64,000 bases of DNA, from the NCBI GenBank assembly GCA_027459745.1, contig DAIDHL010000001.1:13828-77827 (forward strand). The letters are read 5' to 3'. Under the pieces are notes generated by a model. It was not told where the DNA came from. It worked only from the letters and a program-made list of their open reading frames with translations, and did not search any database. Below are positions 4,093 through 41,866 of this stretch, in pieces. Both the position numbers and the translations under genes were made by a program. Origin of the DNA: Candidatus Levyibacteriota bacterium. GTDB taxonomy: Bacteria > Patescibacteriota > Microgenomatia > Levybacterales > UBA12049. How positions within the stretch are numbered: the first letter of the stretch is position 1; every line of letters begins with the position of its first letter.

Positions 4093-4093
4093 T

Positions 4094-7994: not shown

Positions 7995-8055
7995 AGATTG
8001 GATTTCCTGACTATTCCAAACTGACAGCAGATTAATTATTTGCTACAATATTATC

Positions 8056-9034: not shown

Positions 9035-10117
9035 ATGAACATAGCTCTAGATATAACGCCCATTAGCTCTAATAGTAATTCTCAGCACAAGGTAAGAGGA
9101 GTTGGTTTTTATATTAAGAATCTTAAAAATTCTCTTACAAAATATCTTCCTGATAATAATTATCAATTTGTTGATGACTTAAATAAGATTGATTCCTCTA
9201 CAAACCTTTTGCATATACCTTATTTCGATCCTTTTTTTGTACATCTACCTAAATTTAAAAAATATTCTACTATAGTAACCATTCATGATTTAACCCCGCT
9301 TATATTTCCGGAACATTTTCCAATTGGTTTAAAGGGAAATATTAAATGGCAGATACAAAAACATCTGGTTAAACAAGCGGATGCTATTATTACTGATTCG
9401 CAATCTTCAAAAAAAGATATTGTTTCTTTGTTAAAATTTAACTCAGAAAAAGTTCACGTAGTTTATTTAGCAGCAGGGGAAGAGTTTAAACGTAGTATAA
9501 ATAATCAAAAGCAGAAAAGAGAAATGCTTACAAAATATAATTTGCCGGAAAGATTTGTACTGTATGTTGGGGATGTTACTTGGAATAAGAATCTACCTCT
9601 TCTGATAAAAGCGGTCAAAAAACAACAAATTCCTCTTGTTATGATAGGTAGCGCTTTATCTCAAGCTAATTACGATAGAACAAATCCTTGGAATAGTGAT
9701 CTTAATATGATTAATAAAGAAATTGAGAATGTTAAATATATTCATACACTAGGCTTTGTTCCTAGTCAGGACCTGGTAGATATTTACAATTTGGCTACGT
9801 GTTTAGTTTTGCCTTCTATTTATGAGGGATTTGGTCTGACTGTCCTGGAGGCCATGCAGTGTGGTTGTCCCGTTATTACGACGAGAAATGGTTCTTTACC
9901 TGAAATAGCAGGAAATGCAGCTCTATATATCAATGGAGAAGATGAAAATGATATTATAGAAGGAATACAGAAGCTTTTTTCATCTGAAAAATTGCAAAAA
10001 GAACTTTGTCTTAAAGGGTTGGAACAAGCTAGAAATTTTTCCTGGGAAAAAACAGCCAAACAAACGATGAATGTATACAAGTCCGTCTATGAAGCAACAC
10101 ATAACTCGTCTTTATAA
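9035..10117 (+). CDS. Glycosyltransferase family 4 (GT-B, Glycos_transf_1).
   Basis: C-terminal EGFGLTVLEAMQCGCPVITT nucleotide-sugar binding motif. Confidence 0.75.
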   Translation: MNIALDITPISSNSNSQHKVRGVGFYIKNLKNSLTKYLPDNNYQFVDDLNKIDSSTNLLHIPYFDPFFVHLPKFKKYSTIVTIHDLTPLIFPEHFPIGLKGNIKWQIQKHLVKQADAIITDSQSSKKDIVSLLKFNSEKVHVVYLAAGEEFKRSINNQKQKREMLTKYNLPERFVLYVGDVTWNKNLPLLIKAVKKQQIPLVMIGSALSQANYDRTNPWNSDLNMINKEIENVKYIHTLGFVPSQDLVDIYNLATCLVLPSIYEGFGLTVLEAMQCGCPVITTRNGSLPEIAGNAALYINGEDENDIIEGIQKLFSSEKLQKELCLKGLEQARNFSWEKTAKQTMNVYKSVYEATHNSSL

Positions 10118-11354
10118 CAATCCTCTAATTTCCGGAAGTACAGTAATCTTAGTGGGGAGTTTTGTGGGCAATCTGGTAAACTTCTTTTTTAATCAGCAGA
10201 TGGTTTCTCGTCTCCCTTTGGATCAGTACGGTGTATTAGCGCTTATTCTTGCGTTTGTCAATTTGCCTGGCTTTGCCTTCAGTTTTATAAATTTGATTAT
10301 TGTTAGTTATACAGGTGGAATGTTTGTGAAAAAGGAGATGGGTAAAGTAAAAGGTTTTTTTATGACTGTTTATACTTTCACTTTGCCTATAATTTTTCTC
10401 CTCTTTGTTTTATCACTCTTTTCACTCACAGGTTTTAAATCTTTTTTTCATATTACTTCAACTCCATTATTGGTCATAGCCATTGTGATAATTGTTATAT
10501 CAGTATTTAGTGTAATTAATCAGGCATTTTTACAAGCAAAACTGTCATTTTTTTATCTTACTAGCATCAATTTCTTATCGGCTGTTATGAAGTTTTTCTT
10601 TACACTGGCAGCTTTTTTTCTCGGTTGGGGACTGGAGGGAATTACTTACGGCATTCTTCTTGCTTATCTTATTGCTTATATCCTAACATTTATTCCTATG
10701 ACTTTCCTTCGTACTCACGCTCGGGAATATCATGATATACATCCGGGTAATTTATTCTCTTATAGCTGGCAGTCAGCAGTTTCATTAATTTCCTTAACGG
10801 CTTTTATTTCTACTGATCTTTTTTTAGTAAAACATTTCTATTCGCCAGATCAGGCTGGATTGTATGCTGGACTAACATTTTTAGGTAGAGTAATCTTCTT
10901 TTTTAGCGGTCCTATTGCCTCAGCTATGTTTCCTATAATAGTGCAGAAACAGGAGAAAGGCGAAAAGTATATAAACACATATTGGCTTGCGCTGATACTA
11001 GTCACGGGTTTTTCTATTGCTATAGCTGCTTTTTATAGTATTTTCCCTCAATTTATTGTAAGTTTGTTCCTTAGGAAAAGTGATTATTTATCTATATCTT
11101 ATTTGGTGGGATACTACGCATTAGTAATGGTAGTTTATACAATGCTTTCAACAACAGTTAATTTTTATTTATCGATTAAGAAAACTTCAGTTTGGATGAC
11201 CTTATTTAGCGGGGCTGTGGTACAAGCTATTTTGTTGTATCTTTTTCATCAATCTTTTTCTCAAATTGTAACTATTAATCTGATGCTTGAATCAATTGTA
11301 TTGATTTTCCTTCTTATTCAGCTACAATTGACAGGACATGAAAAAAAGAACTAA
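10071..11354 (+). CDS. Polysaccharide biosynthesis protein, candidate Wzx-like oligosaccharide flippase. The true start is probably at an internal Met.
   Basis: About 12 TM helices in a protein of roughly 420 aa within a glycan cluster. The 5' end overlaps the upstream glycosyltransferase. Confidence 0.5.
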   Translation: MYTSPSMKQHITRLYNNPLISGSTVILVGSFVGNLVNFFFNQQMVSRLPLDQYGVLALILAFVNLPGFAFSFINLIIVSYTGGMFVKKEMGKVKGFFMTVYTFTLPIIFLLFVLSLFSLTGFKSFFHITSTPLLVIAIVIIVISVFSVINQAFLQAKLSFFYLTSINFLSAVMKFFFTLAAFFLGWGLEGITYGILLAYLIAYILTFIPMTFLRTHAREYHDIHPGNLFSYSWQSAVSLISLTAFISTDLFLVKHFYSPDQAGLYAGLTFLGRVIFFFSGPIASAMFPIIVQKQEKGEKYINTYWLALILVTGFSIAIAAFYSIFPQFIVSLFLRKSDYLSISYLVGYYALVMVVYTMLSTTVNFYLSIKKTSVWMTLFSGAVVQAILLYLFHQSFSQIVTINLMLESIVLIFLLIQLQLTGHEKKN

Positions 11355-16213: not shown

Positions 16214-16223
16214 TCTCATCGCT

Positions 16224-24625: not shown

Positions 24626-25555
24626 ATGATCAGTTATGTAATTCCAGTCTACAACGAGGAAGAGAGTTTGTCCGCATTTTATAAAGAACTCAAAAAAGTT
24701 ATAAGCAAGATAAAAGATTCAGCTGAAATTATTTTTATTGATGACGGTTCTACAGATTCTTCTTTAAGATTATTAAAAGATTTATCTAAAAAAGATAAAT
24801 TTGTTAGAATATTTTCTTTTCGCAAAAATCAGGGTAAAGCAGAAGCTTTAACGCTTGGTTTTCAAAAAGCAAAAGGAGAATATGCAGTAACACTAGATGC
24901 AGATTTACAAGATCGTCCAAGTGAAATAAGTAAACTACTAAAACTTATTAAACAGGATGAGTGGGATATGGTTAGTGGATGGCGATATAAACGACAGGAT
25001 AGTAAGCAAAAAGTAATTTCCTCTAAATTTTTCAATTACCTAGCGCGTAATTTTTGGGGATTATATTTGCATGATTATAATTGTGGGCTAAAAGCATACA
25101 CCTCAGAATGCGCTAAATCTTTAAAACTGTATGGAGGTTTTCACCGTTTTATCCCACTTCTGGCTTATCAGGAAGGATTTCAGGTAACTGAAGTAGCCAT
25201 TGAACATGACAAAAGAAAATTTGGCAAGTCTAAATTCGGGTTTTCCAAGGTTTGGAAGGATCTGCCTGATATCTTTACCATGCTATTTTTGTATAAATAT
25301 AGTAAAAGACCCATGCACTTTTTTGGTATGTTGGGAGGAATAATATTTTTAATAGGTCTTGGAATTTTAATCTACTTGTCTATTATGCATTTTATTGGCT
25401 ATACAATAGGAGATAGACCGCTTTTAACTTATGGAATGCTATTTTTATTAGCCGGGTTACAATCCTTCTTGACTGGATTTTTAGCAGACCTCATAATAAA
25501 CACATCAGCCAAAGAAATTACGCATCATCCACTGCGTTTCTCGACTGATGTTTAA
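24626..25555 (+). CDS. Polyprenol-phosphate glycosyltransferase of the Dpm1/GtrB/ArnC type: a GT2 domain with a C-terminal TM pair.
   Basis: MISYVIPVYNEEESL...IFIDDGSTDSS...TLDADLQDRP. The C-terminus has two TM helices (MHFFGMLGGIIFLIGLGILIYL..., LLTYGMLFLLAGLQSFLTGFLADL), the classic architecture of polyprenyl-phosphate sugar synthases. Confidence 0.75.
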   Translation: MISYVIPVYNEEESLSAFYKELKKVISKIKDSAEIIFIDDGSTDSSLRLLKDLSKKDKFVRIFSFRKNQGKAEALTLGFQKAKGEYAVTLDADLQDRPSEISKLLKLIKQDEWDMVSGWRYKRQDSKQKVISSKFFNYLARNFWGLYLHDYNCGLKAYTSECAKSLKLYGGFHRFIPLLAYQEGFQVTEVAIEHDKRKFGKSKFGFSKVWKDLPDIFTMLFLYKYSKRPMHFFGMLGGIIFLIGLGILIYLSIMHFIGYTIGDRPLLTYGMLFLLAGLQSFLTGFLADLIINTSAKEITHHPLRFSTDV

Positions 25556-26316: not shown

Positions 26317-26318
26317 AT

Positions 26319-27455
26319 ATGTTAATAGGAATTGATGGCAACGAAGCAAATGTAACAAAAAGAGTAGGTGTGAGCGAGTTTGCTTATGAATTGATTAATC
26401 AATTTGCACAAATGGATAATCAGGACTCTAGCTTCAGAATTTATCTTAAAGAACAGCCATTGGATGACTTCCCAACACAAACTAATAATTGGAGATACAA
26501 AGTGTTTGGTCCCAAAAAAATGTGGACACAATTTGCGTTACCTACGCGTCTATTACTTGAAACAAAAAAACCGGATGTATTCTTCACTCCTTCTCACTAT
26601 GCACCAAGATTATCCTTGTGCCCTACGGTAATATCAATTATGGATTTAGCATTTATCCATTTTTCACAGTATTTTGCCAAAAAAGACCTATATCAGCTTC
26701 AGAATTGGACTAAATATTCCGTGAAAAATGCAGTAAAAATCATTACTATAAGCGAAGCGAGCAAATCTGATATACTCAAGGAGTACGGTGTTGATCGGGA
26801 TAAAGTTGTAGTGATTTATCCTGGTATCAAGCCCAAAATGGATATGTCAACCTTAGAACCACATATTTATAAATGGCAAGAAGTTCAACGTAAATTTGAA
26901 ATTGCAGATAGGTATTTGCTGTTTGTCAGCACTCTCCAACCACGAAAGAATGCTGCTCGTTTGATTGAAGCATTTTCCCAACTTAAAGCTGTTAAAAAAG
27001 GTGAATTGCAATTGCTCATCGTGGGTAAAAAAGGTTGGCTATATGAAGAAATTTTGGCCGCCCCAGAAAAGTTTGGTGTAGAAAAGGAAGTAAAGTTTTT
27101 GGACTTTGTAAATAATGAGGACTTGGAAGTTTTATATAGGAATGCTCAGTTGTTTGTTTACCCCAGTCTGTATGAAGGATTTGGTTTACCAGTGGTTGAA
27201 GCGATGAGATATGATTGTCCAGTTGTAACCAGCAATGTCAGTAGCTTGCCTGAGGCAGGAGGAGACGCTGCATTATATTTTGATCCACTTAATGTTGACG
27301 ATATGACCAAGGTCATAGAAAAAGTTTTGAATGAGCCAGAGCTACGAAAGAAAATGATAGCCAAGGGACATGCACAAATTTTAAAATTCAGCTGGGAGAA
27401 AGCAGCTAAGGAGACGCTAGAGGTGTTGAGAGAGGTAGCGGGGAAGAAGGGGTAG
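26319..27455 (+). CDS. Glycosyltransferase family 4 (GT-B).
   Basis: EGFGLPVVEAMRYDCPVVTSNVSSLPE motif. Confidence 0.8.
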   Translation: MLIGIDGNEANVTKRVGVSEFAYELINQFAQMDNQDSSFRIYLKEQPLDDFPTQTNNWRYKVFGPKKMWTQFALPTRLLLETKKPDVFFTPSHYAPRLSLCPTVISIMDLAFIHFSQYFAKKDLYQLQNWTKYSVKNAVKIITISEASKSDILKEYGVDRDKVVVIYPGIKPKMDMSTLEPHIYKWQEVQRKFEIADRYLLFVSTLQPRKNAARLIEAFSQLKAVKKGELQLLIVGKKGWLYEEILAAPEKFGVEKEVKFLDFVNNEDLEVLYRNAQLFVYPSLYEGFGLPVVEAMRYDCPVVTSNVSSLPEAGGDAALYFDPLNVDDMTKVIEKVLNEPELRKKMIAKGHAQILKFSWEKAAKETLEVLREVAGKKG

Positions 27456-27497
27456 ATCCTTCGACTCGCCCCGATTTAATCGGTGCTCGCTCAGGAT

Positions 27498-27531
27498 GAC
27501 AGAAAAAGTGGGAAATTTTACTTTTTCTGTC
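27498..27531 (+). terminator. Stem-loop with a 12-bp perfect stem: a candidate intrinsic terminator or RNA structure.
   Basis: GACAGAAAAAGT(27498-27509), a 10-nt loop, then ACTTTTTCTGTC(27520-27531). It lies in the 108-nt gap after the GT4 gene. No strong U-tract follows. Confidence 0.4.
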
Positions 27532-27563
27532 AAGTAAATTACAGTTGATTACATTAATAAATT

Positions 27564-28169
27564 ATGCAAGATAAAACTGGGAAATCATTATCAGCGAACG
27601 AAATTATGAGTAAAGGAACAGGGCGTTTGAATGCAATTTTTATGGAATTGGGTAATATGCTGGAAATGTGGGTTGGTTATATACCTGTGCACCATGTTAG
27701 AAGATTTTTCTATCGTTTAGGTGGCATGCGTATAGGTAGTGGTTCGTCAATTCATACTGGTACGCGCTTTTATAATTTAGGTAATATTGCTGTAGGTAAG
27801 GATACGATTATTGGCGAAGGGGCAGTTCTAGATGGACGCTCAAAATTACAAATTGGTGATCATGTAGATATTGCCTCAGAAGTCATGATCTACAATGCGG
27901 AACATAATATCAATGCTGAACATTTTGCCGATGCTGATAGCGTCGTTCAGGCGCCAGTGATTATTGAAGATTATGTGTTTATCGGCCCAAGGGCAATAAT
28001 TTTACCAGGCGTGACTATTGGCAAAGGGGCAATCGTAGCAGCAGGTGCAGTTGTAACTAAAGATATCCCTGAATATGCTATTGTAGGCGGTGTACCCGCT
28101 AAGATAATTGGTGAGAGGCAAAATAAGGATTTACATTACAAATTAGGGCGAGCAGCTTGGTTTCGTTAA
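27564..28169 (+). CDS. Hexapeptide-repeat (left-handed beta-helix) acetyltransferase, candidate sugar O-acetyltransferase.
   Basis: Repeated [LIV]G-x-x-x-x hexads: IGDHVDIASEVMI...GPRAIILPGVTIGKGAIVAAGAVVTKDIPEYAIVGGVPAKII. Confidence 0.75.
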   Translation: MQDKTGKSLSANEIMSKGTGRLNAIFMELGNMLEMWVGYIPVHHVRRFFYRLGGMRIGSGSSIHTGTRFYNLGNIAVGKDTIIGEGAVLDGRSKLQIGDHVDIASEVMIYNAEHNINAEHFADADSVVQAPVIIEDYVFIGPRAIILPGVTIGKGAIVAAGAVVTKDIPEYAIVGGVPAKIIGERQNKDLHYKLGRAAWFR

Positions 28170-28178
28170 CTCTTCGTT

Positions 28179-29054
28179 ATGCAACTTTCTATCATCACGT
28201 TAAATTTTCGTAAGCCATTGTTAACCTTGGCTTGTATCGCCTCATTATACAAAACATATAGTAAAGAATTTGCTGAAGATAAATTTGAAGTAATTATAGT
28301 AGACAATTTTTCTCAAGATAATTCAGTTGAGGTGATCAAAGCAGAACTTAAGAAGAAAAATTACAAAAATTGTCATTTATTAGAAAATAGTAAAAATGCG
28401 GGTTTTGGAGCTGGAAATAACTTTGGCGTTACTAAAGCAAAAGGAGAGGCTGTTGTTTTTTTGAATAACGATACAGAGGTTAAAGATGGTTTGCAAGAAA
28501 TGCTTAATTTTCTAATGAGTCACAAAGAGGTAACAATTTTAGGTGGACAATTAAAAAATGATGATGGTTCACTGCAAAATTCAAGCGGTAAATTCTATAC
28601 TCTTTGGAATTTAGCCTTATTTTTACTCGGTTTGCAAAATTTTGGTTTAGTTGACAAAAGTCCTGCTCATATAGCAGAAGTGGATTGGGTGAAAGGTGCC
28701 CTTTTGATGATTAGGAGAGAAGCTTTTGAAGTATTAGAAGGATTTGATGAGCATATTTTTATGTATTTAGAAGATATGGAGCTATGTTTTAGAGCCAGAA
28801 AAAAAGGCTATAAAGTGTTCTTTTATCCTAATGTCAATATAATTCACCAAGATCAGGGTAGCTCTAATCGGACCTTTGCAATTATAAATATTTATAAGAA
28901 TATGCTGTACTTTTACGCCAAGCATAAAAGTAGTGTAGAATATATATTAGCTAAGTACATGCTGCTAATTAAAGCATATTTTGTTATACTTGTGGGTATG
29001 CTTTTAAATAAAAAGGAATTAGTTTCAAGGTATAAAGCAGCAATAAAATTCTAA
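28179..29054 (+). CDS. Glycosyltransferase family 2.
   Basis: LSIITLNFRKP...VIIVDNFSQDNS...FLNNDTEV, a GT2 signature. Confidence 0.7.
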   Translation: MQLSIITLNFRKPLLTLACIASLYKTYSKEFAEDKFEVIIVDNFSQDNSVEVIKAELKKKNYKNCHLLENSKNAGFGAGNNFGVTKAKGEAVVFLNNDTEVKDGLQEMLNFLMSHKEVTILGGQLKNDDGSLQNSSGKFYTLWNLALFLLGLQNFGLVDKSPAHIAEVDWVKGALLMIRREAFEVLEGFDEHIFMYLEDMELCFRARKKGYKVFFYPNVNIIHQDQGSSNRTFAIINIYKNMLYFYAKHKSSVEYILAKYMLLIKAYFVILVGMLLNKKELVSRYKAAIKF

Positions 29055-29058
29055 ACGT

Positions 29059-32000
29059 ATGAACTTAATGCATGAACTGAGTTACATTTTTTTAAATAAT
29101 GTTTCGGTTGACTCTTGGCAATTATATTCACCCATAGTTTTAATACTGCTAATGATAGTAGGATATGCCTTATCGCCCTTCATTAGAAAGCATTTGTTAT
29201 TTATTTATACATCGTTTTTAACTCTATTTATCCCTTTATATCCTAAGATTCCTATAGAAGGCGTACGCAATACTTTTGTATATCTAAGATTAGATGATAT
29301 TGCCGTGGCAATTGGAGTAGTATTATGGCTGTTTTATCTAGTTAAAAAGAAAACTACTTGGAAGACACCTTTAACTATTCCTATCTTAATATATTGGGTA
29401 ATAGGTTTAATTTCTACAGTAGTTGCTTTAATATTTATTTTCCCAACGCTTCCAAACGTATTCCCGCATAATGCGATACTTTTTTACTTGCGGCATATTG
29501 AATATTTAATTGTGTACTTTTTGGCCTTTTCAGCCATGCGAGATAAGAAATATTTGCCCTGGATGAGCGGTATTTTGGTATTTACAATGCTGTTAATAAT
29601 CGGATATGGATTTGGTCAGGCAAGATATCCGTCTGTCTTCTTGGCATATTCGACCATGAACGAACAGTTTGCCAAAGGTATTCCGTTGATTCTGCAATCA
29701 GGAGCTAGAATTCAGGCCACCTTTGCAGGTCATTATGATCTGGCTGCTTATCTAGTGCTCTTAATTCCTTTGATTGGTAGCTTAGTATTCGGGACAAAAA
29801 AATGGTACTGGAAGATATTGTTTATTCTGACTGCTTTGATGGGTTTAATTTTATTATTGCTTACAGCCTCCAGAACGTCTTATGCAGTATATATAGTTGC
29901 GGTTATCATGATGCTTATTTTGCAGAAGAAAAAGATTTGGATTGTACCAGTTTTGGTCGTAAGCGTGTTACTTCTGTTATCTTTTCATACATTAGCCCAA
30001 AGATTTGCTGATACCTTGACCCAGCAATCTGTAGTTATTGATGCGAGAACTCATCAGGTTGTAGGTTTGGCAAATCAGAATAAGAAGACTGGTAAGGTGA
30101 CTGTTGTAGAAAAAACCGCTGTAGGGCAAAATTTAGCTCCAGGAAGCGGGTATATTGTATCTAATACCCAACAACCTATTCAGAAAACCACGGACGTAAC
30201 TTTTAAGAAGACTACTTTGCGGGCCGGAAGTGAGTCAGCTCAAATTACTAACCTGCGTGGGGACTTTGTCGTGCAGAAGGCTTTAGCATATGATGATTCC
30301 TTTACGACCCGTTTTCAAGGAGAATGGCCCATTGCAATTGCTGCGTTCTTGCGTGATCCTTTGCTGGGAAGTGGATATTCATCTATTGGCTTGGCCAGTG
30401 ATAACAATTACTTACGTATGTTAGGAGAAACGGGCTTATTGGGATTTTTGTCATTTCTGTTCATTTTTCTTATGACTGGGATTTATGCCTATAGGGTATT
30501 GCCAGATGTAGATTCACCTTTGGCCAAAAGTATGGTTTTTGGTACTCTGTCAGGTATCTTTGGCTTGGGATTAAACGCTATTTTAATTGATGTTTTCGAG
30601 GCTTCCAAGGATGCTTATGCACTTTGGTTATTACTAGGTATAACCATAGGTATATTGTCTTTGTATCAAAAGCATAAAGTTAATTTTATTTCAGATTTAA
30701 AAATCTTAATTTCCACTCCAGCTGTCGCCGTCTATTTCTTAATCGCTTGTTTGGGACTATTTATTAATAGTTTGAATAATTTCTTTGTAGCAGATGATTT
30801 TACTTGGTTGCGTTGGGTAGCAGATTGCAATAAGGTAGTTGTAAATGGTGTTGGGACTTGTGAGTCTGTAAAAGTTACCTTGTTACACTTTTTTACGAAC
30901 GCTGGTGGATTCTTCTATCGTCCGATGGAAAAATTATACTTTTACTTTATGTACACGCTCTTTGGATTTAATCCCACACCTTTTCATGCAGTTTCTGTTA
31001 TTACTCATTGGCTAGTCACAGTATTAATTTACATATTATCTAAAAGATTATTTGCTAATAAAAAATTCCCCGCTTTCTTGGTGGCTGTAGTTTTCATGTT
31101 GCTTAGTAGTCATACAGAAGACATTTACTGGATTTCTGCATCGGGTCATCTATTCGTAGCTCTATTTAGTTTATTGGCTGTACTATTTTATGACAATTAT
31201 CGTTTACATAAAAAGAAAATACAACTTATTTTAAGCTTACTTGCAGCGCTTATTGCACCGATGTTTCATGAGTCAGGAGTTATGGCTTCTGTTCTAGTGC
31301 TGTTATATGCAATAGTAATGGATTGGAATAATCTGCATAAGAGGGGAGCAAAGATATGGAGCTATCTAGTATGGTTAATGCCATTACCAGTATATTTTGC
31401 GATGAGAATATATGCAAAAAGTATTTGGAGTGCAGGGGATTATAGTTATAACTTAGCCAAATTACCACTTAATTTCTTTGGCAACATTTTAGGTTATTTT
31501 GTTACTACAATGGCTGGTCTATCATTTGTTTCATCCTATACTTTTATGCGTGATTATGGTAAATCGCATGTTTTAATAGTCATTTTAATTCTTTTAATTA
31601 TTTTAGCTGTTTTGATTGGTATATATTTGTTATTAAGGAAATCTAAAAAAGCATGGAATTATAAATTAATATTAATAGGTTTATTATTTTTTGTGGTGCC
31701 TTTGTTGCCATTCTTGGGACTGGGAAATATGTCCCCAAGATATGAATATTTGGCCAGTTTTGGAATTATATTATTAGTTGTTTATTTATTAGAAAAACTT
31801 TTTAAAGCAGTTAAATTAAATAACACATATGCATTGGGACTAATAAGTGTTATTTTAGTAGGTTTATTTAGTTGGTATCACTATATACAAATTATAAATA
31901 CCAGTGAAGATTGGACTAAGGCTGGTCAAATAGCACAAAATTCCCTGGTGGAAATTTCTAATGAATATGCTCAGCCGGGTTCATTACCTCCGAGTCCTGT

Positions 32001-32250
32001 CTTTTATTTTAGTAATGTACCCGCCACGTATGGTAAAGCGTTAGTTTTTCCGACCGGTATGCAAGATGCAATATGGATGTATTTCCAGGATAAAAATGTC
32101 ATCGTAAAAGAGACGCCCAATATTAATATATCTATTAAAGAAGGCGAAGCCACTACTAGCGCTAGGTTTTATGAATTTGACAAAAATTATAATATCATCG
32201 AAACAGCTCGGACGGTAGTTACTATTACTAAAAATAAAAATGCAAAATAA
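29059..32250 (+). CDS. Very large (1063 aa) polytopic membrane protein in two parts. The N-terminal part is O-antigen ligase/polymerase-like (Wzy_C). The C-terminal part is a second multi-TM module that looks like a GT-C/PMT glycosyltransferase.
   Basis: The N-terminal module of about 10 TM helices carries an LLTASRTSYAVYIVAVIMM segment, matching the Wzy_C arginine region. There is a soluble loop at about aa 330-420. The C-terminal module of more than 10 TM helices carries a FFYRPMEKLYFYFMYTLFGFNP loop. Confidence 0.45.
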   Translation: MNLMHELSYIFLNNVSVDSWQLYSPIVLILLMIVGYALSPFIRKHLLFIYTSFLTLFIPLYPKIPIEGVRNTFVYLRLDDIAVAIGVVLWLFYLVKKKTTWKTPLTIPILIYWVIGLISTVVALIFIFPTLPNVFPHNAILFYLRHIEYLIVYFLAFSAMRDKKYLPWMSGILVFTMLLIIGYGFGQARYPSVFLAYSTMNEQFAKGIPLILQSGARIQATFAGHYDLAAYLVLLIPLIGSLVFGTKKWYWKILFILTALMGLILLLLTASRTSYAVYIVAVIMMLILQKKKIWIVPVLVVSVLLLLSFHTLAQRFADTLTQQSVVIDARTHQVVGLANQNKKTGKVTVVEKTAVGQNLAPGSGYIVSNTQQPIQKTTDVTFKKTTLRAGSESAQITNLRGDFVVQKALAYDDSFTTRFQGEWPIAIAAFLRDPLLGSGYSSIGLASDNNYLRMLGETGLLGFLSFLFIFLMTGIYAYRVLPDVDSPLAKSMVFGTLSGIFGLGLNAILIDVFEASKDAYALWLLLGITIGILSLYQKHKVNFISDLKILISTPAVAVYFLIACLGLFINSLNNFFVADDFTWLRWVADCNKVVVNGVGTCESVKVTLLHFFTNAGGFFYRPMEKLYFYFMYTLFGFNPTPFHAVSVITHWLVTVLIYILSKRLFANKKFPAFLVAVVFMLLSSHTEDIYWISASGHLFVALFSLLAVLFYDNYRLHKKKIQLILSLLAALIAPMFHESGVMASVLVLLYAIVMDWNNLHKRGAKIWSYLVWLMPLPVYFAMRIYAKSIWSAGDYSYNLAKLPLNFFGNILGYFVTTMAGLSFVSSYTFMRDYGKSHVLIVILILLIILAVLIGIYLLLRKSKKAWNYKLILIGLLFFVVPLLPFLGLGNMSPRYEYLASFGIILLVVYLLEKLFKAVKLNNTYALGLISVILVGLFSWYHYIQIINTSEDWTKAGQIAQNSLVEISNEYAQPGSLPPSPVFYFSNVPATYGKALVFPTGMQDAIWMYFQDKNVIVKETPNINISIKEGEATTSARFYEFDKNYNIIETARTVVTITKNKNAK

Positions 32251-33745
32251 AAAAATATTCTCTCTCATCTTACTATTTTTAATTCTGATAGGCGCATTTG
32301 TAGTTAGATTATACAGATTTAATAATCCAATCGCTGATTGGCATAGTTGGAGACAAGCAGACACATCTGCTGTTTCTAGATATTTTGTGCAACATGGGTA
32401 TGATATTTTACATCCACATTTTGAAGATATTTCAAATGTTCCTTCTGGCTTGGAGAATCCACAAGGTTATAGATTTGTTGAATTTCCAATATACAACGTT
32501 GAACAGGCATTTCTATCTCAAATGTTTCCGTTCTTGACGCTGGAAGAATGGGGGAGGATGGTGAGTATTTTAGCTTCTCTTTTAACTATAGTTTTTTTGT
32601 ATCTTTTAATTAAAAAATATACTGATAGTAATACTGCTATTTTCGTTGCATTCTTGTACGCTTTTATCCCTTACAATATTTACTATAACCGGACGATTTT
32701 GCCTGATACTTCTATGGTTACGGCAATTATTGGAGGAATATATTTTTTTGATAAGTGGCTTGAACAGCAAATAGTTATAAAAAATCATAAATCAACTATA
32801 AAGACTAGACTCATAAGTTTTATATATTTTGCACTGTCCTTATTATTTACAACCGCAGCATTTCTATTAAAACCTTACGCGTTATTTTTTACCTTACCAA
32901 TGATTTATTTGGCTATTATTCATTTTAGATGGAAGATTTTTTTACAGTGGAAATTATATATCTATCTAATAGTCTCAGTTGTGCCTTTAATCTGGTGGAG
33001 AAGCTGGATGCAACAGTGGCCTGCAGGTATACCTGCCAGTAGCTGGCTGTTTAATGGCAATGGAATTCGTTTTAAACCAGCCTATTTTTATTGGCTATAT
33101 GCTGACAGATTAGGCCGTTTAATTATGGGTTATTGGGGTATGTTTCTTTTTCTTTTGGGGATCTCATATATCAGTTCAAAAACTTTTTTTGAGAAATACC
33201 GTATTGCAGTTGGCTTACTTATCAGTTTTATTCTTTCAAGTTTTATATATATTACGGTTATTGCCACAGGCAATGTTCAGCATGATTATTATCAAATCCT
33301 TATAGTTCCAAGTATTGCTATATTTGCAGGTGTGGGTTGCTCTATGCTTTTTAAATCCTCAGGTTCGTTTATAAATCCTATTATGGCCAAGATTTTATTG
33401 TTTGTTACTTTAAGCTTTATGCTCTTCTTTGGTTGGTATTTTGTCCGAACGTATTTTGATATTAATAATCCCAGCATCGTGGTGGCAGGAGAAGCAGTCA
33501 ATAAATTAACTCCTAAAGACGCTAAGGTTATTGCTTCTTATAACGGAGACACTTCCTTTTTATACCAGACTAACCGTCAAGGATGGCCTGTTTTTGCGCA
33601 TAGTCTTTCAGAATTAATACAGATGGGAGCTGATTATATGATATTTGCCAATCCTGCTCCTAATGAACTTGCTTTTAAAAGTCAATACAGAGTGGTAGCT
33701 GAAACACCTCAATATATAATTTATAACTTACACGAGAAACCATGA
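32240..33745 (+). CDS. ArnT/PMT-family (GT39/GT83-like) polytopic glycosyltransferase.
   Basis: 501 aa, multi-TM, with an N-terminal VVRLYRFNNPIADWHSWRQADTSAVSRYF loop typical of the ArnT-like PMT_2 family. Confidence 0.55.
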   Translation: MQNKKIFSLILLFLILIGAFVVRLYRFNNPIADWHSWRQADTSAVSRYFVQHGYDILHPHFEDISNVPSGLENPQGYRFVEFPIYNVEQAFLSQMFPFLTLEEWGRMVSILASLLTIVFLYLLIKKYTDSNTAIFVAFLYAFIPYNIYYNRTILPDTSMVTAIIGGIYFFDKWLEQQIVIKNHKSTIKTRLISFIYFALSLLFTTAAFLLKPYALFFTLPMIYLAIIHFRWKIFLQWKLYIYLIVSVVPLIWWRSWMQQWPAGIPASSWLFNGNGIRFKPAYFYWLYADRLGRLIMGYWGMFLFLLGISYISSKTFFEKYRIAVGLLISFILSSFIYITVIATGNVQHDYYQILIVPSIAIFAGVGCSMLFKSSGSFINPIMAKILLFVTLSFMLFFGWYFVRTYFDINNPSIVVAGEAVNKLTPKDAKVIASYNGDTSFLYQTNRQGWPVFAHSLSELIQMGADYMIFANPAPNELAFKSQYRVVAETPQYIIYNLHEKP

Positions 33746-34941
33746 ATATTCTTGTAGTGAGCTCTTATCTGCCCTTCCCATTACATTCGGGAGGAGAGAC
33801 AAGGCTATATAATTTACTAAAGATTTTAAGCCAAAAACATAAAATAACTTTAGTTTGTGAAATGCGTTCTTTTCAAACTAAGCGGGATATTTTTGAACTG
33901 GAAAAATTTTGTCAAAGTGTCATCACAGTCCCTCGCAAAAAACAATGGAGTCTGAATAATATTTTAAAAACTGGCTTTTCTGCTAACTCTTTCTTAATAA
34001 CAGGACATACTAGTCAATCTATGAGAGATGCCATAACATCTATACTTTTTACACAGCACATTGATTTAATTCACGTAGAGACATCATATGTATTACAAAA
34101 TATTCCAGCAACTAAAGTACCCGTATTATTAGTTGAACATAATATAGAATACCTTGTCTATCAAAGATATTTGGATAAAGGAAATAAACTAAGTAAGCCT
34201 TTATTACAGGTAGATGTCAATAAACTTAAGCGTTTCGAGCAACATGCATGGCGAAGGGCTAGCAGAGTCGCAGCTGTTTCTCCGCAAGAAAGAGATGTAA
34301 TTAAAAAATTAAAATCTGATGTATCAGTTATACCAAATGGTGTGGACTTGGATACTTTCGCCATGAAACATGTACCTTCTTTCTTAAAAACAGTCAAAGA
34401 AAAAAGATTATTATTTATTGGTGATTTCAACTGGATTCAGAATAGAGATGCTGTCTCTTGGTTAATTTTGAAAGTTTGGCCTTTACTTAGAAAAAGATTT
34501 AGTGATAGTAATTTAAAGTTATGGATTGTGGGCAGGCATATTCCAGATAGTATTAAAAATATGTCTGGCCTGGATATTTTAGCAACAGAGTCCGCTCCCA
34601 GTGCCGCTGATGTATTTAGACAGTCATATTTACTACTTGCCCCGATAAGAGTAGGTGGGGGAACAAGTTATAAAATTTTAGAATCAATGGCATGTGGAAC
34701 TCCCGTTATTACTACCTCTCTGGGTGCTGAAGGAATTTTAGCAGATAAGGATAAAGACATATTAGTAGGAAATGAACCAAGTGAAATATGCGATATGGTG
34801 GAGAGGCTATTAGAAAATGATAAAATGTATACCAAAATTGCCGTAAATGCCAGAGAGAAAATCGAACAAAATTATTCTTGGTTAGGTATAGCTAAACAAT
34901 TGGATGAACTATATCACTTAACTGCAGTCACAAAAAAATAG
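33742..34941 (+). CDS. Glycosyltransferase family 4 (GT-B).
   Basis: Glyco_trans_4-like N-domain and C-terminal ESMACGTPVITTSLGAEGIL motif. Confidence 0.7.
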   Translation: MNILVVSSYLPFPLHSGGETRLYNLLKILSQKHKITLVCEMRSFQTKRDIFELEKFCQSVITVPRKKQWSLNNILKTGFSANSFLITGHTSQSMRDAITSILFTQHIDLIHVETSYVLQNIPATKVPVLLVEHNIEYLVYQRYLDKGNKLSKPLLQVDVNKLKRFEQHAWRRASRVAAVSPQERDVIKKLKSDVSVIPNGVDLDTFAMKHVPSFLKTVKEKRLLFIGDFNWIQNRDAVSWLILKVWPLLRKRFSDSNLKLWIVGRHIPDSIKNMSGLDILATESAPSAADVFRQSYLLLAPIRVGGGTSYKILESMACGTPVITTSLGAEGILADKDKDILVGNEPSEICDMVERLLENDKMYTKIAVNAREKIEQNYSWLGIAKQLDELYHLTAVTKK

Positions 34942-34968
34942 TAAATAATTTTAATTACTGATTTTAAA

Positions 34969-36360
34969 TTAGAAATCTTTTTTGAAAGGAAGTGTAAAAA
35001 GCTTATTATCCAAACAGTACTTTATTCGATTTAATATAGAAGTTGGGTAGTCTGTGGATAAATAGTCGAATTTTGGTCGATAATAAATGTTATTAATTGA
35101 GATACTGTCCACGTACGAATATAACTTATTTACAGCATCAGGAATACTTACGCCAGAGGCGGTTACGGGAGCAATGACTGTATCGTAACCAACATTGTAG
35201 TAATTGTCTTTTTTTAGAGCTAGTTCATAGAACCAAATATGTTCAGTGTATTTGTCTGGGAAATTAATTGAAATATTTGACTGATAATTGCCTGCTTTTA
35301 AATCTTGAATTAGATTGAACAATGTTATCGAAACTCCCACGCTTCCCAGTTTGTAAGGATTTTTTTTATTAACTACGCTTTCGAAATAATAAGAGAGATT
35401 GGGCATTTGTTCTAATGTAGTATAAAATGAGTTAAATCCAAATCTATTAGGACAAAATTCTCCAAAATATACTTTATTTGTTTTTCTATCAATCAACAAC
35501 GAAGCATCCCAGATGAATAATCCTTTATGTTTTTTTGCTATTTCATCGACAATCGGAGGGAAAGATAAATCATGAATTTTGCTATCCATACTTATCGGGA
35601 AAACTACATCCCCTGCACAGCCCACCTGGTATGAGAGATTGCCGCTACCTATAAACTTATTCTCAAACATGACTGTCATTCCTAGGGGTTGTCCATCATA
35701 ATAAATTTTTTCTGGAGTTATTTCTACTACATCTTCTATCTTCTTTTCTAAAATGAAACCAAACTTCTCATATTCGTGTTGGTTTTTATATAAGTTGTCA
35801 ATTAACTGTTTTCTTGCCTGAAGAGGATCATTTATAGGTGGAACAAATGTCGCGACAGAATCAGTCTGGGATTTTAGCACCCATACTTCTTTACTTTTAT
35901 TCAAAAAAGCTATAGCTTTATCAACAGAGTTAAATTTTTCTATTAACGATTCTGAAATATTAGGATAGTGTTTCTTAACGAATTCTTTTGCTTTATTCCT
36001 GTCCAATTCATACTCTCTATCTTCCTCTGTAGGGAATATGCCTTCAAATCCCATGGCCTGCAATTTTTGAGCGTATTTAAAAACATAATTAGATTCACAA
36101 ATGACAAAATAATCAGAAGGATTTTTGATTTTCTTAGCTTTTTTCAAGAAAACATCAGCATCGATCTTATTAATAATTTTGTTATATAAACTCAATCGTT
36201 GTTTTTTATCTAGAGGAGACTCTTTCTCAAAAGGTTCATTTGAAGTTCTGACATCTTTTAAATTTGCAATTTGGGCGAGTATTACTTCTTGACCTTCTTT
36301 TTGAAGTTTGTATGCAAGCGAGAAAATGAAACCTTCAAAGCCTATGATAATATATTTCAT
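34969..36360 (-). CDS. PurD-like (glycinamide-ribonucleotide-synthetase family) ATP-grasp ligase, paralog A.
   Basis: Segments are collinear with PurD. MKYIIIGFEGFIFSLAYKL matches the GARS_N MKVLVIGSGGREHALAWKL region. MGFEGIFPTEEDREYELDRNKAKEFVKKHYP matches AGLKIFGPT..A.LEGSKAFTKDFL. KVYFGEFCPNRFGFNSF matches PKVIEFNCRFGDPETQ. Confidence 0.5.
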   Translation of the reverse strand: MKYIIIGFEGFIFSLAYKLQKEGQEVILAQIANLKDVRTSNEPFEKESPLDKKQRLSLYNKIINKIDADVFLKKAKKIKNPSDYFVICESNYVFKYAQKLQAMGFEGIFPTEEDREYELDRNKAKEFVKKHYPNISESLIEKFNSVDKAIAFLNKSKEVWVLKSQTDSVATFVPPINDPLQARKQLIDNLYKNQHEYEKFGFILEKKIEDVVEITPEKIYYDGQPLGMTVMFENKFIGSGNLSYQVGCAGDVVFPISMDSKIHDLSFPPIVDEIAKKHKGLFIWDASLLIDRKTNKVYFGEFCPNRFGFNSFYTTLEQMPNLSYYFESVVNKKNPYKLGSVGVSITLFNLIQDLKAGNYQSNISINFPDKYTEHIWFYELALKKDNYYNVGYDTVIAPVTASGVSIPDAVNKLYSYVDSISINNIYYRPKFDYLSTDYPTSILNRIKYCLDNKLFTLPFKKDF

Positions 36361-36366
36361 GAGATT

Positions 36367-37830
36367 TTAAAAAGTGACCGGAAAAGGTAGTTTATATAGC
36401 TTTTTTTGTAATCCATATCTTAAACGATTTAATATTGAGCTAGGATAATCCAACGAAAGAAAATCTGATTTAGGGCGATAATAAATTCCTGCCAAAGAAA
36501 ATCCTTCAATGTTTTCAAACAACATTCTAGTCGCTTCATCAATAGAATGGCCAACTCCAGTTATTGGTGCAAGTTGCCAATCATATCCTACGATTCTCAT
36601 TTTATCATTTTTCTTTTTTTTGTAAACGTCCCAAGACCAGATGTGTTTAGAAGCTTCTTGAGTATAATTTACTGAAGCACCGGATAAAAGATGTCTCTCG
36701 GTCGGATCTCGTAATAAATTAAATAATGTAGTTGATACACCTACCGTACCCAATTCAAATGGATTTTCTTTTTTAACAATTTTTTCAAAAAAATAATGAA
36801 TTGAAGGTAATTGAGATAGACATGTAAAAAAAGAGTTATATCCAGGTCGATTAGGGCAAAATTCGCCAAAATAAATATCTCCTGTTTTCTTATCAATTAA
36901 TAAAGATGCGTCCCAAATAAACAGTCCTTTATGTTTTTTTGCCATTTTGTCAATTATAGGGGGGAAAGTTATCTTGTCGATTTTGTTATCTAAATCTATA
37001 GGAAAAACAAGATCAGCTGCACAGCCTGTTTGTAAAGATATATTACCGCTACCTATTTGTTTGTTTTCAAAATTTATAGTTAGAGATAAAAGTTTTCCGT
37101 CATAGTAGATTCTCTCTGGCGTGACCTCCGCAACAGAGATAATTTTCCTTTCCAGAATAAAGCCTGCATCTTCATAATAATCCTTAAATGCTTCCAGAGT
37201 TTCAATAACTTGCCATTTTGCAAGTTCGGGATCATCTGTGTTTGGTACGAAAGTCGGTGCCCATAAGTTTTTACCTTTAAGAACCCATACTTTATCTCCA
37301 TTATTTTCTTTTAAAAATTTCTTTCCTCTTCGGATAGTTCTAAATTCTGCTTTTTCTGCGATTTTAACATCCTTGTAATATTTTTTAACAAAATTTTTAG
37401 AGAAGTCTCTATCGACTTCAAATAAACGATCTTTCTCGGTTGGAAAATTCCCCCGTGTAAATCCTAGCGCCTTGACATGATCTGCGTATCTAAATAAATT
37501 ATTGTAGTCAAAAAAAACAAAGTAATTATCTTTATCTTTGATTCTTTTCATTTGTCTTAAAAGTTTTACGGCAGGAATCTTATTGATCATATTTTTGTAT
37601 AATGACAATCTTCTTTTTTTTTCAACACTGGTTTCGGAGTCATTAGTTTTTTTCTCAATTCTGGTTAAAGTTGTTTTTCTGTCCTCAACTATTCCCACAA
37701 TAACTTCTTGCCCTTCTTCTTGTAGTTTATGTGCAATTGGTAGTCCTTCTCCCGCATATGTGAAGATAATGTATTTCATACTAGTAATTAAAGAATAATT
37801 TCTGCGAAATTGCAAGAATTTATACAACAT
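36367..37830 (-). CDS. PurD-like ATP-grasp ligase, paralog B. The true start is probably the internal MKYIIFTYAGEG at about nt 37776.
   Basis: Same collinear motifs as paralog A: KALGFTRGNFPTEKDRLFEVDRDFSKNFVKKYY; DIYFGEFCPNRPGYNSF. It lies tandem to the ORF at 34969. Confidence 0.5.
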   Translation of the reverse strand: MLYKFLQFRRNYSLITSMKYIIFTYAGEGLPIAHKLQEEGQEVIVGIVEDRKTTLTRIEKKTNDSETSVEKKRRLSLYKNMINKIPAVKLLRQMKRIKDKDNYFVFFDYNNLFRYADHVKALGFTRGNFPTEKDRLFEVDRDFSKNFVKKYYKDVKIAEKAEFRTIRRGKKFLKENNGDKVWVLKGKNLWAPTFVPNTDDPELAKWQVIETLEAFKDYYEDAGFILERKIISVAEVTPERIYYDGKLLSLTINFENKQIGSGNISLQTGCAADLVFPIDLDNKIDKITFPPIIDKMAKKHKGLFIWDASLLIDKKTGDIYFGEFCPNRPGYNSFFTCLSQLPSIHYFFEKIVKKENPFELGTVGVSTTLFNLLRDPTERHLLSGASVNYTQEASKHIWSWDVYKKKKNDKMRIVGYDWQLAPITGVGHSIDEATRMLFENIEGFSLAGIYYRPKSDFLSLDYPSSILNRLRYGLQKKLYKLPFPVTF

Positions 37831-37886
37831 TGCTTATGTTTTGCTAATAAAATGGAGTTTAAACTCTTGTGATATACTAGCCATAT

Positions 37887-40065: not shown

Positions 40066-41147
40066 AAATTATTGTTTTTGCTGGTGGTGTAGGATCAAGA
40101 TTATGGCCTTTATCTCGTAAAAATACTCCGAAACAGTTCGGTAAAATTATTCAGGATCGTTCAATGTTACAAATAGCCGTGCATAAACTTTTTCCTGGTT
40201 TTGAGTGGAAAGACATTTATATTTCAACCGGTGAGCGTTATCAAGATATTATTAAGGAGCAATTGCCACTGTTGAACAAAGAAAATATAATTGTTGAGCC
40301 AGAAATGAGAGATGTGGGTCCAGCAGTTGGACTGGTTATCTCCAGATTAGTAAAAACTCATCCTGATGAACCAATAGTTCTGCTTTGGGGTAGCGATCAT
40401 TTAGTTAAAGAAGAAGCTAAATTTAGAAAAATTTTGAAAGCGGCAGGTAAGTTAATAGAACAAAAGCCGGATCGTATAGTCTTCATTGGACAAAAGCCTC
40501 GATATGGAAATCAAAATGTAGGATATATTGAATTTGGTGAAGAAATGAATAAGGCAGATGATTTTAATGTCTATAAATTTACAGGCTTCCAATATAGTCC
40601 ACCTTTGGAGATTGCACAAAAATATTCCACAGATGGTAAACACGCGTGGAATCTGGGATATTTTGCTACTACTCCTAAATTTTTATGGAAACTATTTGAA
40701 TCACTTGCTCCTGAGATCTTTGCAAAATTAAAAGTAATTCATGATGCATATGGCACTGAAAATTATGAACAAGTGTTGAAAGATGTTTATTCAACCATTG
40801 AGAAAATTTCTTTTGATAACGCTATTTTAGAAAAAATGGACACCAAATATGGTTGTGTAATTTCAGAAGATATAGGATGGAGTGATATTGGTGCCTGGGA
40901 AGCGATGAAAGAAGCTTTAAGCGATACTGTTGATGCTAACGTTACTAAAGGCAAGGTTATTCTTGAAGACTGCAAGGACTCTATTGTTCATAATGAAACA
41001 GGGCAACTAATTGTAGGTATAGATCTAGAAGGTCTTGTGGCAGTAAGTACGAATGATGTGATTTTAATTTGTCCTAAAGAGTCAGTTCCAAAAATTAAGA
41101 AGTTTGTTGCTAGTTTAAAAGGAACGGAGCATGAGAATCTTACATGA
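40062..41147 (+). CDS. manC: Mannose-1-phosphate guanylyltransferase (GDP-mannose pyrophosphorylase), nucleotidyltransferase domain only.
   Basis: MKIIVFAGGVGSRLWPLSRKNTPKQF N-terminal signature of ManC/CpsB-type NTP-transferases. There is no PMI cupin domain. Confidence 0.75.
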   Translation: MKIIVFAGGVGSRLWPLSRKNTPKQFGKIIQDRSMLQIAVHKLFPGFEWKDIYISTGERYQDIIKEQLPLLNKENIIVEPEMRDVGPAVGLVISRLVKTHPDEPIVLLWGSDHLVKEEAKFRKILKAAGKLIEQKPDRIVFIGQKPRYGNQNVGYIEFGEEMNKADDFNVYKFTGFQYSPPLEIAQKYSTDGKHAWNLGYFATTPKFLWKLFESLAPEIFAKLKVIHDAYGTENYEQVLKDVYSTIEKISFDNAILEKMDTKYGCVISEDIGWSDIGAWEAMKEALSDTVDANVTKGKVILEDCKDSIVHNETGQLIVGIDLEGLVAVSTNDVILICPKESVPKIKKFVASLKGTEHENLT

Positions 41148-41815
41148 TGCCAACAGAAGAACTTAATCAATTTAGGGTTTATAATTTCATTAAAAGATTA
41201 ATGGATATAATTTTATCGATTATTCTATTAATAATTTTTTCACCTATAATACTAATTGTCGCATTAATAATAAAAATTGATTCTGAGGGACCAATTTTTG
41301 CAGATACTCCTAAAAGAGTGGGCAAAAATGGAGAAAGATTTTATCCTTATAAATTTCGCTCCATGATAACGAATGCTTATTATTTACTTAAGACAGATCC
41401 TAAATTTCGTAAGGCCTATGAGGAACAACAAAAAGGTGGAAATTATAAAATAAAGGATGATCCCAGAATTACGAAAATTGGCAAGTTTATCCGAAAATAT
41501 TCTCTGGATGAAGTGCCACAATTAGTAAACGTTTTAAAAGGAGACATGAGTCTAGTTGGTCCACGCCCATATTATCCGGAAGAATTAGAGAAACAGCAAA
41601 AACGTTATCCGGAAACTAAAGAGTTGGTAAGAGAAGTGTTATCTGTAAAGCCAGGTGTGACTGGATATTGGCAGGTTTCGGGGCGAAGTATGTTAAATTT
41701 TGATAAACGAATTAGTATGGATGCTGAGTATGCTCGTCGTAAATCAATTATTTACGATTTTTTTATCATACTTAAAACTCCGTGGGCTATGATTTCTGGG
41801 AAAAATGCCTTATAG
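41144..41815 (+). CDS. Polyprenyl-phosphate sugar-phosphate transferase (monotopic PGT, PglC/WbaP C-domain type), the initiating glycosyltransferase.
   Basis: Single N-terminal hydrophobic helix followed by the Bac_transf motifs KFRSM and DEVPQLVNVLKGDMSLVGPRP. Confidence 0.85.
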   Translation: MMPTEELNQFRVYNFIKRLMDIILSIILLIIFSPIILIVALIIKIDSEGPIFADTPKRVGKNGERFYPYKFRSMITNAYYLLKTDPKFRKAYEEQQKGGNYKIKDDPRITKIGKFIRKYSLDEVPQLVNVLKGDMSLVGPRPYYPEELEKQQKRYPETKELVREVLSVKPGVTGYWQVSGRSMLNFDKRISMDAEYARRKSIIYDFFIILKTPWAMISGKNAL

Positions 41816-41866
41816 AGTCAGAGTATATATTTGTGTGACGTGTCAAGTTGACAAGTTACACCTCGG

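Follow-up and report, generated by a model that had tools for sequence, protein, structure and literature searches.

A conserved fusion of a Wzy_C/WaaL-like module and a GT-C class A module in Levybacteria

A bimodular O-antigen ligase is known from Brucella and Mesorhizobium, where WadA joins a GT121 ligase domain to a GT25 glycosyltransferase (GT) domain; the GT25 domain adds the last core sugar, after which the ligase domain acts (PMC10920833). In a 64-kb stretch of DNA from a Candidatus Levyibacteriota bacterium (the window; all coordinates are window positions), we characterized a gene at 29059..32250 whose product of 1063 amino acids (aa) likewise holds a Wzy_C-type module and a second glycosyltransferase in one polypeptide, presumably serving the same glycoconjugate. 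The partner domain of WadA is a globular Leloir enzyme that uses a nucleotide sugar, whereas the partner here is predicted to be an 11-helix GT-C class A membrane enzyme, presumably taking a lipid-phosphate sugar on the outer face. Both enzyme classes were known, as was the bimodular ligase WadA; full-text literature searches found no description of a covalent union of a Wzy_C (class B) and a GT-C class A enzyme, or of glycan assembly or glycosylation in Levybacteria. We suggest, with a probability of roughly 55%, that the protein is bifunctional and couples polymerization or ligation of an undecaprenyl diphosphate (Und-PP)-linked glycan with lipid-phosphate-sugar decoration outside the cytoplasmic membrane.

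Each half of the protein also has described relatives of its own. The N-terminal half (module 1) resembles WaaL (GT121; PDB 7TPG) and the wider Wzy_C family (PF04932) in Pfam match, profile alignment and top fold match. It belongs to the same structural class as the inverting Wzy polymerases and the shape, elongation, division and sporulation (SEDS) proteins of clan GT-C1 (GT119, GT125-129), although no fusion of a clan member with a GT-C class A enzyme has been described and module 1 has no sequence-level assignment to one of its families. The C-terminal half (module 2) shares the GT-C class A fold, a DD motif past the first transmembrane helix (TM1) and the FVxDD, YRP and HxExxW motifs with PMT_2, PMT and TMTC-like enzymes, which we take to be CAZy families GT39, GT83 (ArnT) and GT105 (TMTC). 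It differs from them in lacking a Pfam match, in ending with a small alpha/beta domain where those enzymes have TPR or MIR domains, and in being fused to Wzy_C. Finally, the locus has a logic in common with the three-component systems (GtrA/B/C; ArnC/ArnT; GT136, PMC11127046), in which a GT2 polyprenyl-phosphate sugar synthase works with outer GT-C enzymes. Unlike those systems, it has no identified GtrA- or MATE-type donor flippase in the window, and the GT-C enzyme is covalently joined to a Wzy_C enzyme.

The fused gene lies on the plus strand as a single uninterrupted open reading frame (ORF) of 1063 aa plus stop. It starts with an ATG 4 nt past the stop codon of an upstream GT2 gene, in a window of about 32% G+C. 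A search of 5.8 billion proteins returned more than 1,298 matches, and the best 120 of these, which were inspected, are 997-1131 aa long, cover 84-100% of the query and are 41-100% identical to it, with collinear homologs at 85% and 67% identity. Where the source is named, these best 120 come from Patescibacteria or Levybacteria and are called 'O-antigen ligase family protein', a public annotation that recognizes the first half alone. In a scan of GTDB with one genome per species, 310 genomes had a relative, nearly all labelled Levybacteria, Levyibacteriota or Patescibacteria, and at every one of the best 80 loci examined both modules lie in one uninterrupted frame. Given this constancy of length and frame, the two-module ORF is genuine and conserved, and the mis-assembled junction that the original prediction had kept in view can be set aside. 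The same prediction considered the fusion unusual. Within Levybacteria it is no rarity and comes close to a clade hallmark, with separate gene calls for the two modules at a few loci only. Many GTDB records titled 'uncultured Gammaproteobacteria bacterium' (including L014, L018 and L020) carry a Levybacteria-type fusion gene and neighborhood, and these titles are evidently placeholders or wrong taxonomy.

Searches of PDB sequences with the full protein and with its family profile gave no meaningful match, and the layout was read from a hydropathy scan and an AlphaFold model of the full-length fusion (predicted local distance difference test (pLDDT) score 82, predicted template modeling (pTM) score 0.83). 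Module 1 (aa ~20-541; 29059..30681 when counted from aa 1) is a Wzy_C/WaaL-like GT-C class B unit of ~13 helices. It is followed by a Lys-rich linker of ~12 residues, predicted to be cytoplasmic (aa 537-548, QKHKVNFISDLK; 30667..30702), at which the apparent split genes break. Module 2 (aa ~545-1063) comprises a membrane domain with a GT-C class A fold (aa 545-946; 30691..31896) and a C-terminal soluble alpha/beta domain that hydropathy, alignment and model place outside (aa 947-1063; 31897..32247). This layout revises the original prediction, which had an N-terminal module of ~320 aa, a hydrophilic loop as linker and a second module from about aa 560. The hydrophilic stretch (aa 314-458; 29998..30432) is the external catalytic loop of module 1 by hydropathy, model and alignment, and three more helices come after it, so the ~320-aa boundary cuts module 1 in mid-loop; module 1 extends to about aa 541 (~540 aa), and the second module begins at about aa 545.

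Judged by the distribution of positive charges, the large loop of module 1 shares the outer face with the first loop of module 2, an arrangement with which a cytoplasmic 12-aa linker is topologically compatible, and both catalytic loops thus probably face outward. As modeled, the fusion would be a membrane protein of ~24 helices. Its two halves have different GT-C folds, first class B and then class A, since the model of module 2 matches GT-C class A proteins exclusively and does not match WaaL. In a chain whose halves are equal, the pTM of 0.83 implies that they have a defined mutual packing in the model.

The assignment of module 1 rests on three kinds of comparison. PF04932 scores 36.8 bits on isolated aa 1-550, above the threshold of 31.7, and 31.1 bits, just under it, on the full-length protein; the alignment spans aa 258-467 (29830..30459) and model positions 2-149 of 149, end to end with an insertion of ~60 aa, and precomputed PF04932 matches are present on most homologs. 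When a WaaL profile of 23 sequences was compared with the family profile by hhalign, it aligned with aa 47-334 (E 1.3e-4, probability 54%), placing R217 on R161 and R272 on R215. For the full model, Foldseek ranks WaaL first (7tpg_B; E 7e-4, target-normalized TM-score 0.62), and FtsW is also among the fold matches. The Wzy_C/WaaL-like character that had been proposed for the N-terminal module is therefore upheld. The architecture agrees as well, with ~10 helices, the 145-aa external loop and three further helices, as WaaL has a large external loop and then three helices. Within the loop lies a beta-rich insertion (aa ~320-412) modeled with low confidence (pLDDT about 50-68); WaaL has no counterpart to this insertion of ~60-90 aa (29998-30294, aa 314-412).

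An alignment of 76 homologs shows R145, E148, R217, D227, R272, R315, R418, D448, R453, E457, D511 and K517 to be invariant in module 1. The segment LLTASRTSYAV, which the original prediction had singled out in the 1063-aa ORF, is at aa 266-276 and contains R272. To place these residues, E. coli WaaL (EcWaaL, taken from NC_000913) was mapped onto the solved C. metallidurans enzyme (CmWaaL), giving EcWaaL R215, R288 and H338 as CmWaaL R191, R265 and H313. R272 stands opposite EcWaaL R215/CmWaaL R191, the first diphosphate-binding Arg of WaaL, and R418 aligns with EcWaaL R288 (CmWaaL R265) in non-significant alignments alone. The third residue differs. The WaaL family has a conserved His at the H338/H313 position, whereas module 1 has no conserved His in aa 413-483, and 65 of the 76 homologs have no His there at all. 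In an ungapped motif alignment anchored on the following helix (D448-N-N-Y-L-R-M-L-G-E-T-G-L-L-G against H338-N-E-I-I-E-A-G-S-L-K-G-L-M-G), the invariant D448-N449 occupies the HN position of WaaL, suggesting that D448 (codon at 30400..30402) corresponds to the WaaL His. O-ligases use two Arg and a His, while in the SEDS proteins and inverting polymerases of clan GT-C1 one or two Arg serve the diphosphate and the His gives way to an Asp or Glu (PMC10920833). If the position of D448 is read correctly, R272, R418 and D448 match the clan GT-C1 pattern. Because an Asp would thus replace the ligase His, we consider with moderate confidence that module 1 is more polymerase-like than a WaaL-type ligase, which makes the 'ligase' part of the original label doubtful. 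A Pfam scan of the window proteins identified the fusion as the sole Wzy_C-type protein in the cluster.

Module 2 consists of TM1 (aa 549-573), a 74-aa external loop with the sequence FFVADDF, ~10 more helices and the C-terminal domain, in which P988, A994, G1000, D1003 and W1006 are conserved. When modeled on its own with 76 homologs (pLDDT 92, pTM 0.92), it matched only PglB, ArnT, STT3, Pmt4, ALG9, AftA, AftD and Emb in Foldseek, with a probability of about 1.00 and best TM-scores of 0.40-0.50. A phmmer search of 1.84 billion cluster representatives gave 9,754 relatives of module 2; among the best 148, which were classified, 47 have both modules and another 27 stand alone as near-complete proteins of 450-560 aa. 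As had been predicted, module 2 is separable, since one lineage described below also encodes an intact stand-alone paralog. Some stand-alone relatives lie further away (E 1e-18 to 1e-20 over ~400 aa) and reach the Pfam thresholds for PMT_2 (P0242) or PMT (P0255). P0255 combines PMT with TPR repeats, which P0259 likewise carries, an architecture that resembles the eukaryotic TMTC enzymes.

The FVxDD, YRP, HxExxW and (H/K)E motifs align across module 2 and its PMT_2 and PMT+TPR relatives. In the 76-sequence alignment, D579, D580, E687, E738 and D794 are invariant, and R621, H643, H650, R831 and R894 are nearly so; among 159 fused proteins whose C-module is complete, 150 keep the acidic residues. 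D579-D580 (30793..30798) are acidic residues after TM1 in the first external loop, as is characteristic of GT-C class A. The donor of module 2 is most likely a polyprenyl-monophosphate sugar, because characterized members of the PMT_2 and PMT families use single sugars linked to polyprenyl monophosphate. Descent of module 2 from the same ancestor as the downstream PMT_2 gene or the other GT-C-like genes of the window was also considered and rejected, as phmmer and hidden Markov model comparisons found no detectable similarity.

Several observations weigh against a polymerase-like module 1 coupled to a monophosphate-using module 2. On the side of module 1, the ungapped alignment is the sole basis for equating D448 with the WaaL His, the hhalign comparison of the module 1 tail (aa 400-541) with the WaaL tail was not significant, and H225, on another external loop and 99% conserved in the 76 homologs, could take the role we assign to D448. 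No Wzz-type co-polymerase or LCP-type ligase was recognized within the window. On the side of module 2, no Pfam or NCBIfam family was found, and PMT_2 (PF13231) and PMT (PF02366) stayed unmatched even at E<=10. The PMT/ArnT-like character claimed in the original prediction accordingly holds for the fold and the distant relatives and fails for module 2's own Pfam match. The lone signal on module 2 is a sub-threshold match to EpsG (E 6e-4), and the lowest fold E-values belong to PglB and STT3, users of diphosphate-linked oligosaccharides. The split genes also count here, though they are few and at least one is merely an in-frame stop. These points leave room for other explanations.

The one that survives best, doubtful as we find it, is that module 1 acts as a ligase or O-oligosaccharyltransferase. 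It would move the finished Und-PP-glycan en bloc to an acceptor other than lipopolysaccharide (LPS), such as an S-layer protein, pilin, lipid or wall polymer, while module 2 makes or completes the acceptor site, following the logic of WadA. The database name, WaaL as the top fold match and the precedent of WadA itself all favor it, as do the PMT/TMTC-like protein O-glycosyltransferase types among the relatives of module 2 and the lack of a co-polymerase in the window. The invariant Asp in place of the His conserved in WaaL argues the other way, and PglL-type enzymes also need that His. A cluster with an initiating transferase, a Wzx-like flippase and many glycosyltransferases would be left with no other Wzy candidate. 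To our knowledge, Patescibacteria lack the lipid A-core, and hence the LPS acceptor, that WaaL serves. On balance, the Asp makes us prefer a polymerase-like module 1.

A second alternative, which we regard as considerably less probable, moves the disagreement to module 2. Here module 2 would also use a diphosphate-linked oligosaccharide, as an oligosaccharyltransferase-like enzyme or as a polymerase of the EpsG/GT-C3 type, such that polymerization and final transfer are united in one chain. The best Foldseek E-values (PglB and STT3) and the weak EpsG match, which extends over most of the model, are in keeping with this idea. In GT-C3 polymerases, Arg, Asp and His residues are conserved and a long loop is N-proximal (PMC10920833); the long loop near the N-terminus of module 2 is similar, and the near-invariant Arg and His residues listed above could be read in the same way. 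However, the sequence relatives of module 2 are PMT_2 and PMT+TPR proteins, whose characterized members use monophosphate-linked single sugars, and the target-normalized TM-scores for Pmt4 (0.48), ArnT (0.42-0.44) and ALG9 (0.43) equal or exceed that for PglB (0.34). Reading the sequence by eye, with no dedicated pattern search, we saw no WWDYG-like motif, the C-terminal domain is only ~115 aa long, and EpsG is far below threshold. We therefore retain a monophosphate-linked donor for module 2.

It is also conceivable, at a very low probability for the protein of the window, that module 2 has no catalytic activity and serves as a scaffold or pseudo-enzyme. This idea comes from a small clade (the L007 fusion, P0248 and P0264, probably joined by L009) in which module 2 is retained at full length without its motifs. 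In GCA_964406795.1 (L007), the fusion (2984-6169) is 31% identical to ours and lacks the DD, YRP, HxE and FHE motifs. It is followed by a GT2 gene, an intact stand-alone module 2 paralog (P0162, 503 aa; 7001-8512) and a PMT_2 gene. A dead module 2 kept in the fusion with a live copy nearby hints at a structural role, that of a scaffold-like pseudo-enzyme, in that lineage. The protein of the window, by contrast, keeps the acidic motifs along with the great majority of its fused homologs. The last alternative, that a sequencing or assembly error or a frameshift joined two adjacent genes, has only the few separate gene calls in its favor and is already refuted by the comparative data, namely equal length in independent assemblies and a single frame at the best loci. 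The split calls are themselves exceptional: in L002, an in-frame TAG within module 1 (around 2985-3015) replaces the conserved Glu of IDVFEASK and yields two ORFs, for which a nonsense mutation and a sequencing error are both conceivable causes; in L008, the reading frame shifts within the linker, at a run of six A (A6); P0129 represents part of a longer protein of 1068 aa; and P0121 is at a contig end. The sole clean-looking split, with an 11-nt overlap and divergent ends, is L003, which may be a true split.

The surroundings of the fusion are consistent with a bifunctional glycan enzyme. Glycan biosynthesis occupies more than 40 kb of the window, which has no tRNA genes. Around the fusion, the genes run GT4-N, GT4, hexapeptide transferase, GT2, [fusion], PMT_2, GT4, GT2, GT4, GT4, NTP-transferase, initiating transferase and DUF4012, an order kept in genomes that are only 43-44% identical. 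Directly upstream of the fusion is a GT2 gene in 66 of the 80 GTDB genomes, and directly downstream a PMT_2 gene in 76 of them. The downstream gene here (32240..33745, plus strand, as are the genes given coordinates in this paragraph and the next) encodes a PMT_2-type GT-C protein of 501 aa that scores 33.4 bits against a threshold of 26.1. Nothing ArnT-specific remains of the ArnT-like label it had been given, as it has no ArnT match in NCBIfam and its sole match is weak (AZOBR_p60025 family, E 5e-4). The overlap with the fusion that had been noted is real and measures 11 nt, from the ATG at 32240 to the end of the TAA at 32248-32250. The upstream gene (28179..29054) encodes a 291-aa GT2 of Leloir type with profile matches to EpsD and rhamnosyltransferases. 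We considered it as a lipid-phosphate sugar synthase and rejected it, since it resembles Leloir GT2s and an ArnC-like gene is found elsewhere. Upstream of it is a hexapeptide-repeat acyltransferase (27564..28169), and past the PMT_2 gene a GT4 glycosyltransferase (33742..34941), both assigned by Pfam and synteny to the conserved cluster.

Three further genes could supply the substrates. The ArnC-like GT2 (24626..25555), which has two C-terminal transmembrane helices, matches NF007986 over its full length (E 6e-46); its best match is ArnC, followed by PgfS and AglJ, making it a candidate polyprenyl-phosphate sugar synthase that would provide donors for the GT-C class A enzymes. Profile matches identify an initiating polyprenyl-phosphate hexose-1-phosphate transferase (PGT) with a Bac_transf, WbaP-type catalytic domain (41144..41815). 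A 12-helix Polysacc_synt_3 protein (10071..11354) is a candidate Wzx-type flippase by profile match and predicted helices. The window also encodes many GT4 and GT2 enzymes, a DegT aminotransferase, a GFO oxidoreductase, a formyltransferase and a UDP-GlcNAc 2-epimerase, together with at least seven further polytopic proteins of GT-C-like topology.

These components suggest the following model, in which the topology, the donor types, the preference for a polymerase and the link between both reactions are inferred. The PGT and cytoplasmic glycosyltransferases would build an Und-PP-oligosaccharide that the Wzx-like protein flips. Module 1 would take the flipped oligosaccharide as its donor, with R272 and R418 holding the diphosphate and D448 serving as the base that activates the acceptor, and would join units by an inverting mechanism or, alternatively, transfer the glycan to an acceptor. 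Module 2, through D579-D580 of its first external loop, would add a sugar from the polyprenyl-monophosphate product of the ArnC-like GT2 to the same growing glycan, which its C-terminal external domain probably holds. The translationally coupled PMT_2 enzyme could then add a further modification that depends on a lipid-phosphate sugar. We favor such coupling on the combined strength of the fusion itself, the two folds, the conservation of motifs and of the GT2-[fusion]-PMT_2 gene order, and a cluster that includes a donor synthase, a PGT and a flippase. Given the fusion, the conserved adjacency and the pTM of 0.83, it is plausible that the fusion and the PMT_2 protein act in one complex. A more far-reaching proposal, which we put forward tentatively and hold to be less probable than bifunctionality, is that the two proteins form the core of a Levybacteria-specific extracytoplasmic assembly line, with a class B polymerase or ligase physically tied to class A enzymes, so that one complex would polymerize or transfer a lipid-diphosphate-linked glycan and decorate it from lipid-phosphate sugars.

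Other features of the window came to light in the course of this work. Four polytopic genes with GT-C-like topology (510, 495, 525 and 522 aa), paralogs of one another, follow in a row at 1095-7994, interrupted by a GT2 gene (4094-4855); two of the four reach or approach the PMT_2 threshold, and those at 4852-6429 and 6426-7994 are close relatives by phmmer (E 1e-88). The ArnC-like gene shares its cluster with genes at 14062-16937 for a DegT aminotransferase, a GFO/IDH oxidoreductase and a formyltransferase. This combination suggests synthesis of a formamido sugar and its delivery on a lipid-phosphate carrier, an Arn-like scheme within a Patescibacterium. Two polytopic proteins of 776 and 696 aa (19154-21484 and 22477-24567) have 10-12 transmembrane helices plus a C-terminal one, a GGDD or GGD motif shortly past TM1 and no Pfam family; one has a weak MmpA-family match, and they may be further unannotated GT-C-like enzymes. 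The first gene of the conserved cluster (25780-26316) is a 178-aa ORF holding the GT4 N-terminal (Glyco_transf_4) domain alone, directly before a complete GT4 gene. It is no broken gene, as the short form is kept in related genomes (L004 4822-5367, L006 4831-5364, L007 697-1227 and L008 1843-2412). The cluster is interrupted at 34969-37830, on the minus strand, by two genes of 463 and 487 aa with weak PurD/ATP-grasp-like similarity, which are absent at that place in L004 and L006. Directly after the PGT gene, here as in L004 and L006, is a gene for a DUF4012 protein of 659 aa with one N-terminal transmembrane helix (41867-43846), which may have a role in chain length or export.

The fusion provides 'Rosetta-stone' evidence that polymerization or ligation of a glycan on a diphosphate lipid is physically coupled to its decoration with sugars from a monophosphate lipid; because model organisms have these enzymes as separate proteins, the idea is hard to probe in them. 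With about 10,000 relatives and clear candidates for catalytic residues, module 2 establishes a GT-C class A family that has so far gone unannotated. In practical terms, the results allow better annotation and offer a compact object for structural studies and reconstitution. The envelope of Levybacteria is barely characterized, and the conserved cluster of ~13 genes (25780-43846) probably directs synthesis of its main surface glycan. If the assembly-line proposal is true, the system would be a bacterial counterpart of the extension and then transfer of glycans in the lumen of the endoplasmic reticulum. The dead module 2 retained in one lineage would reflect an additional structural role in the complex, and the principal envelope glycan of these ultrasmall bacteria, which are probably symbionts, would be the product of that complex.

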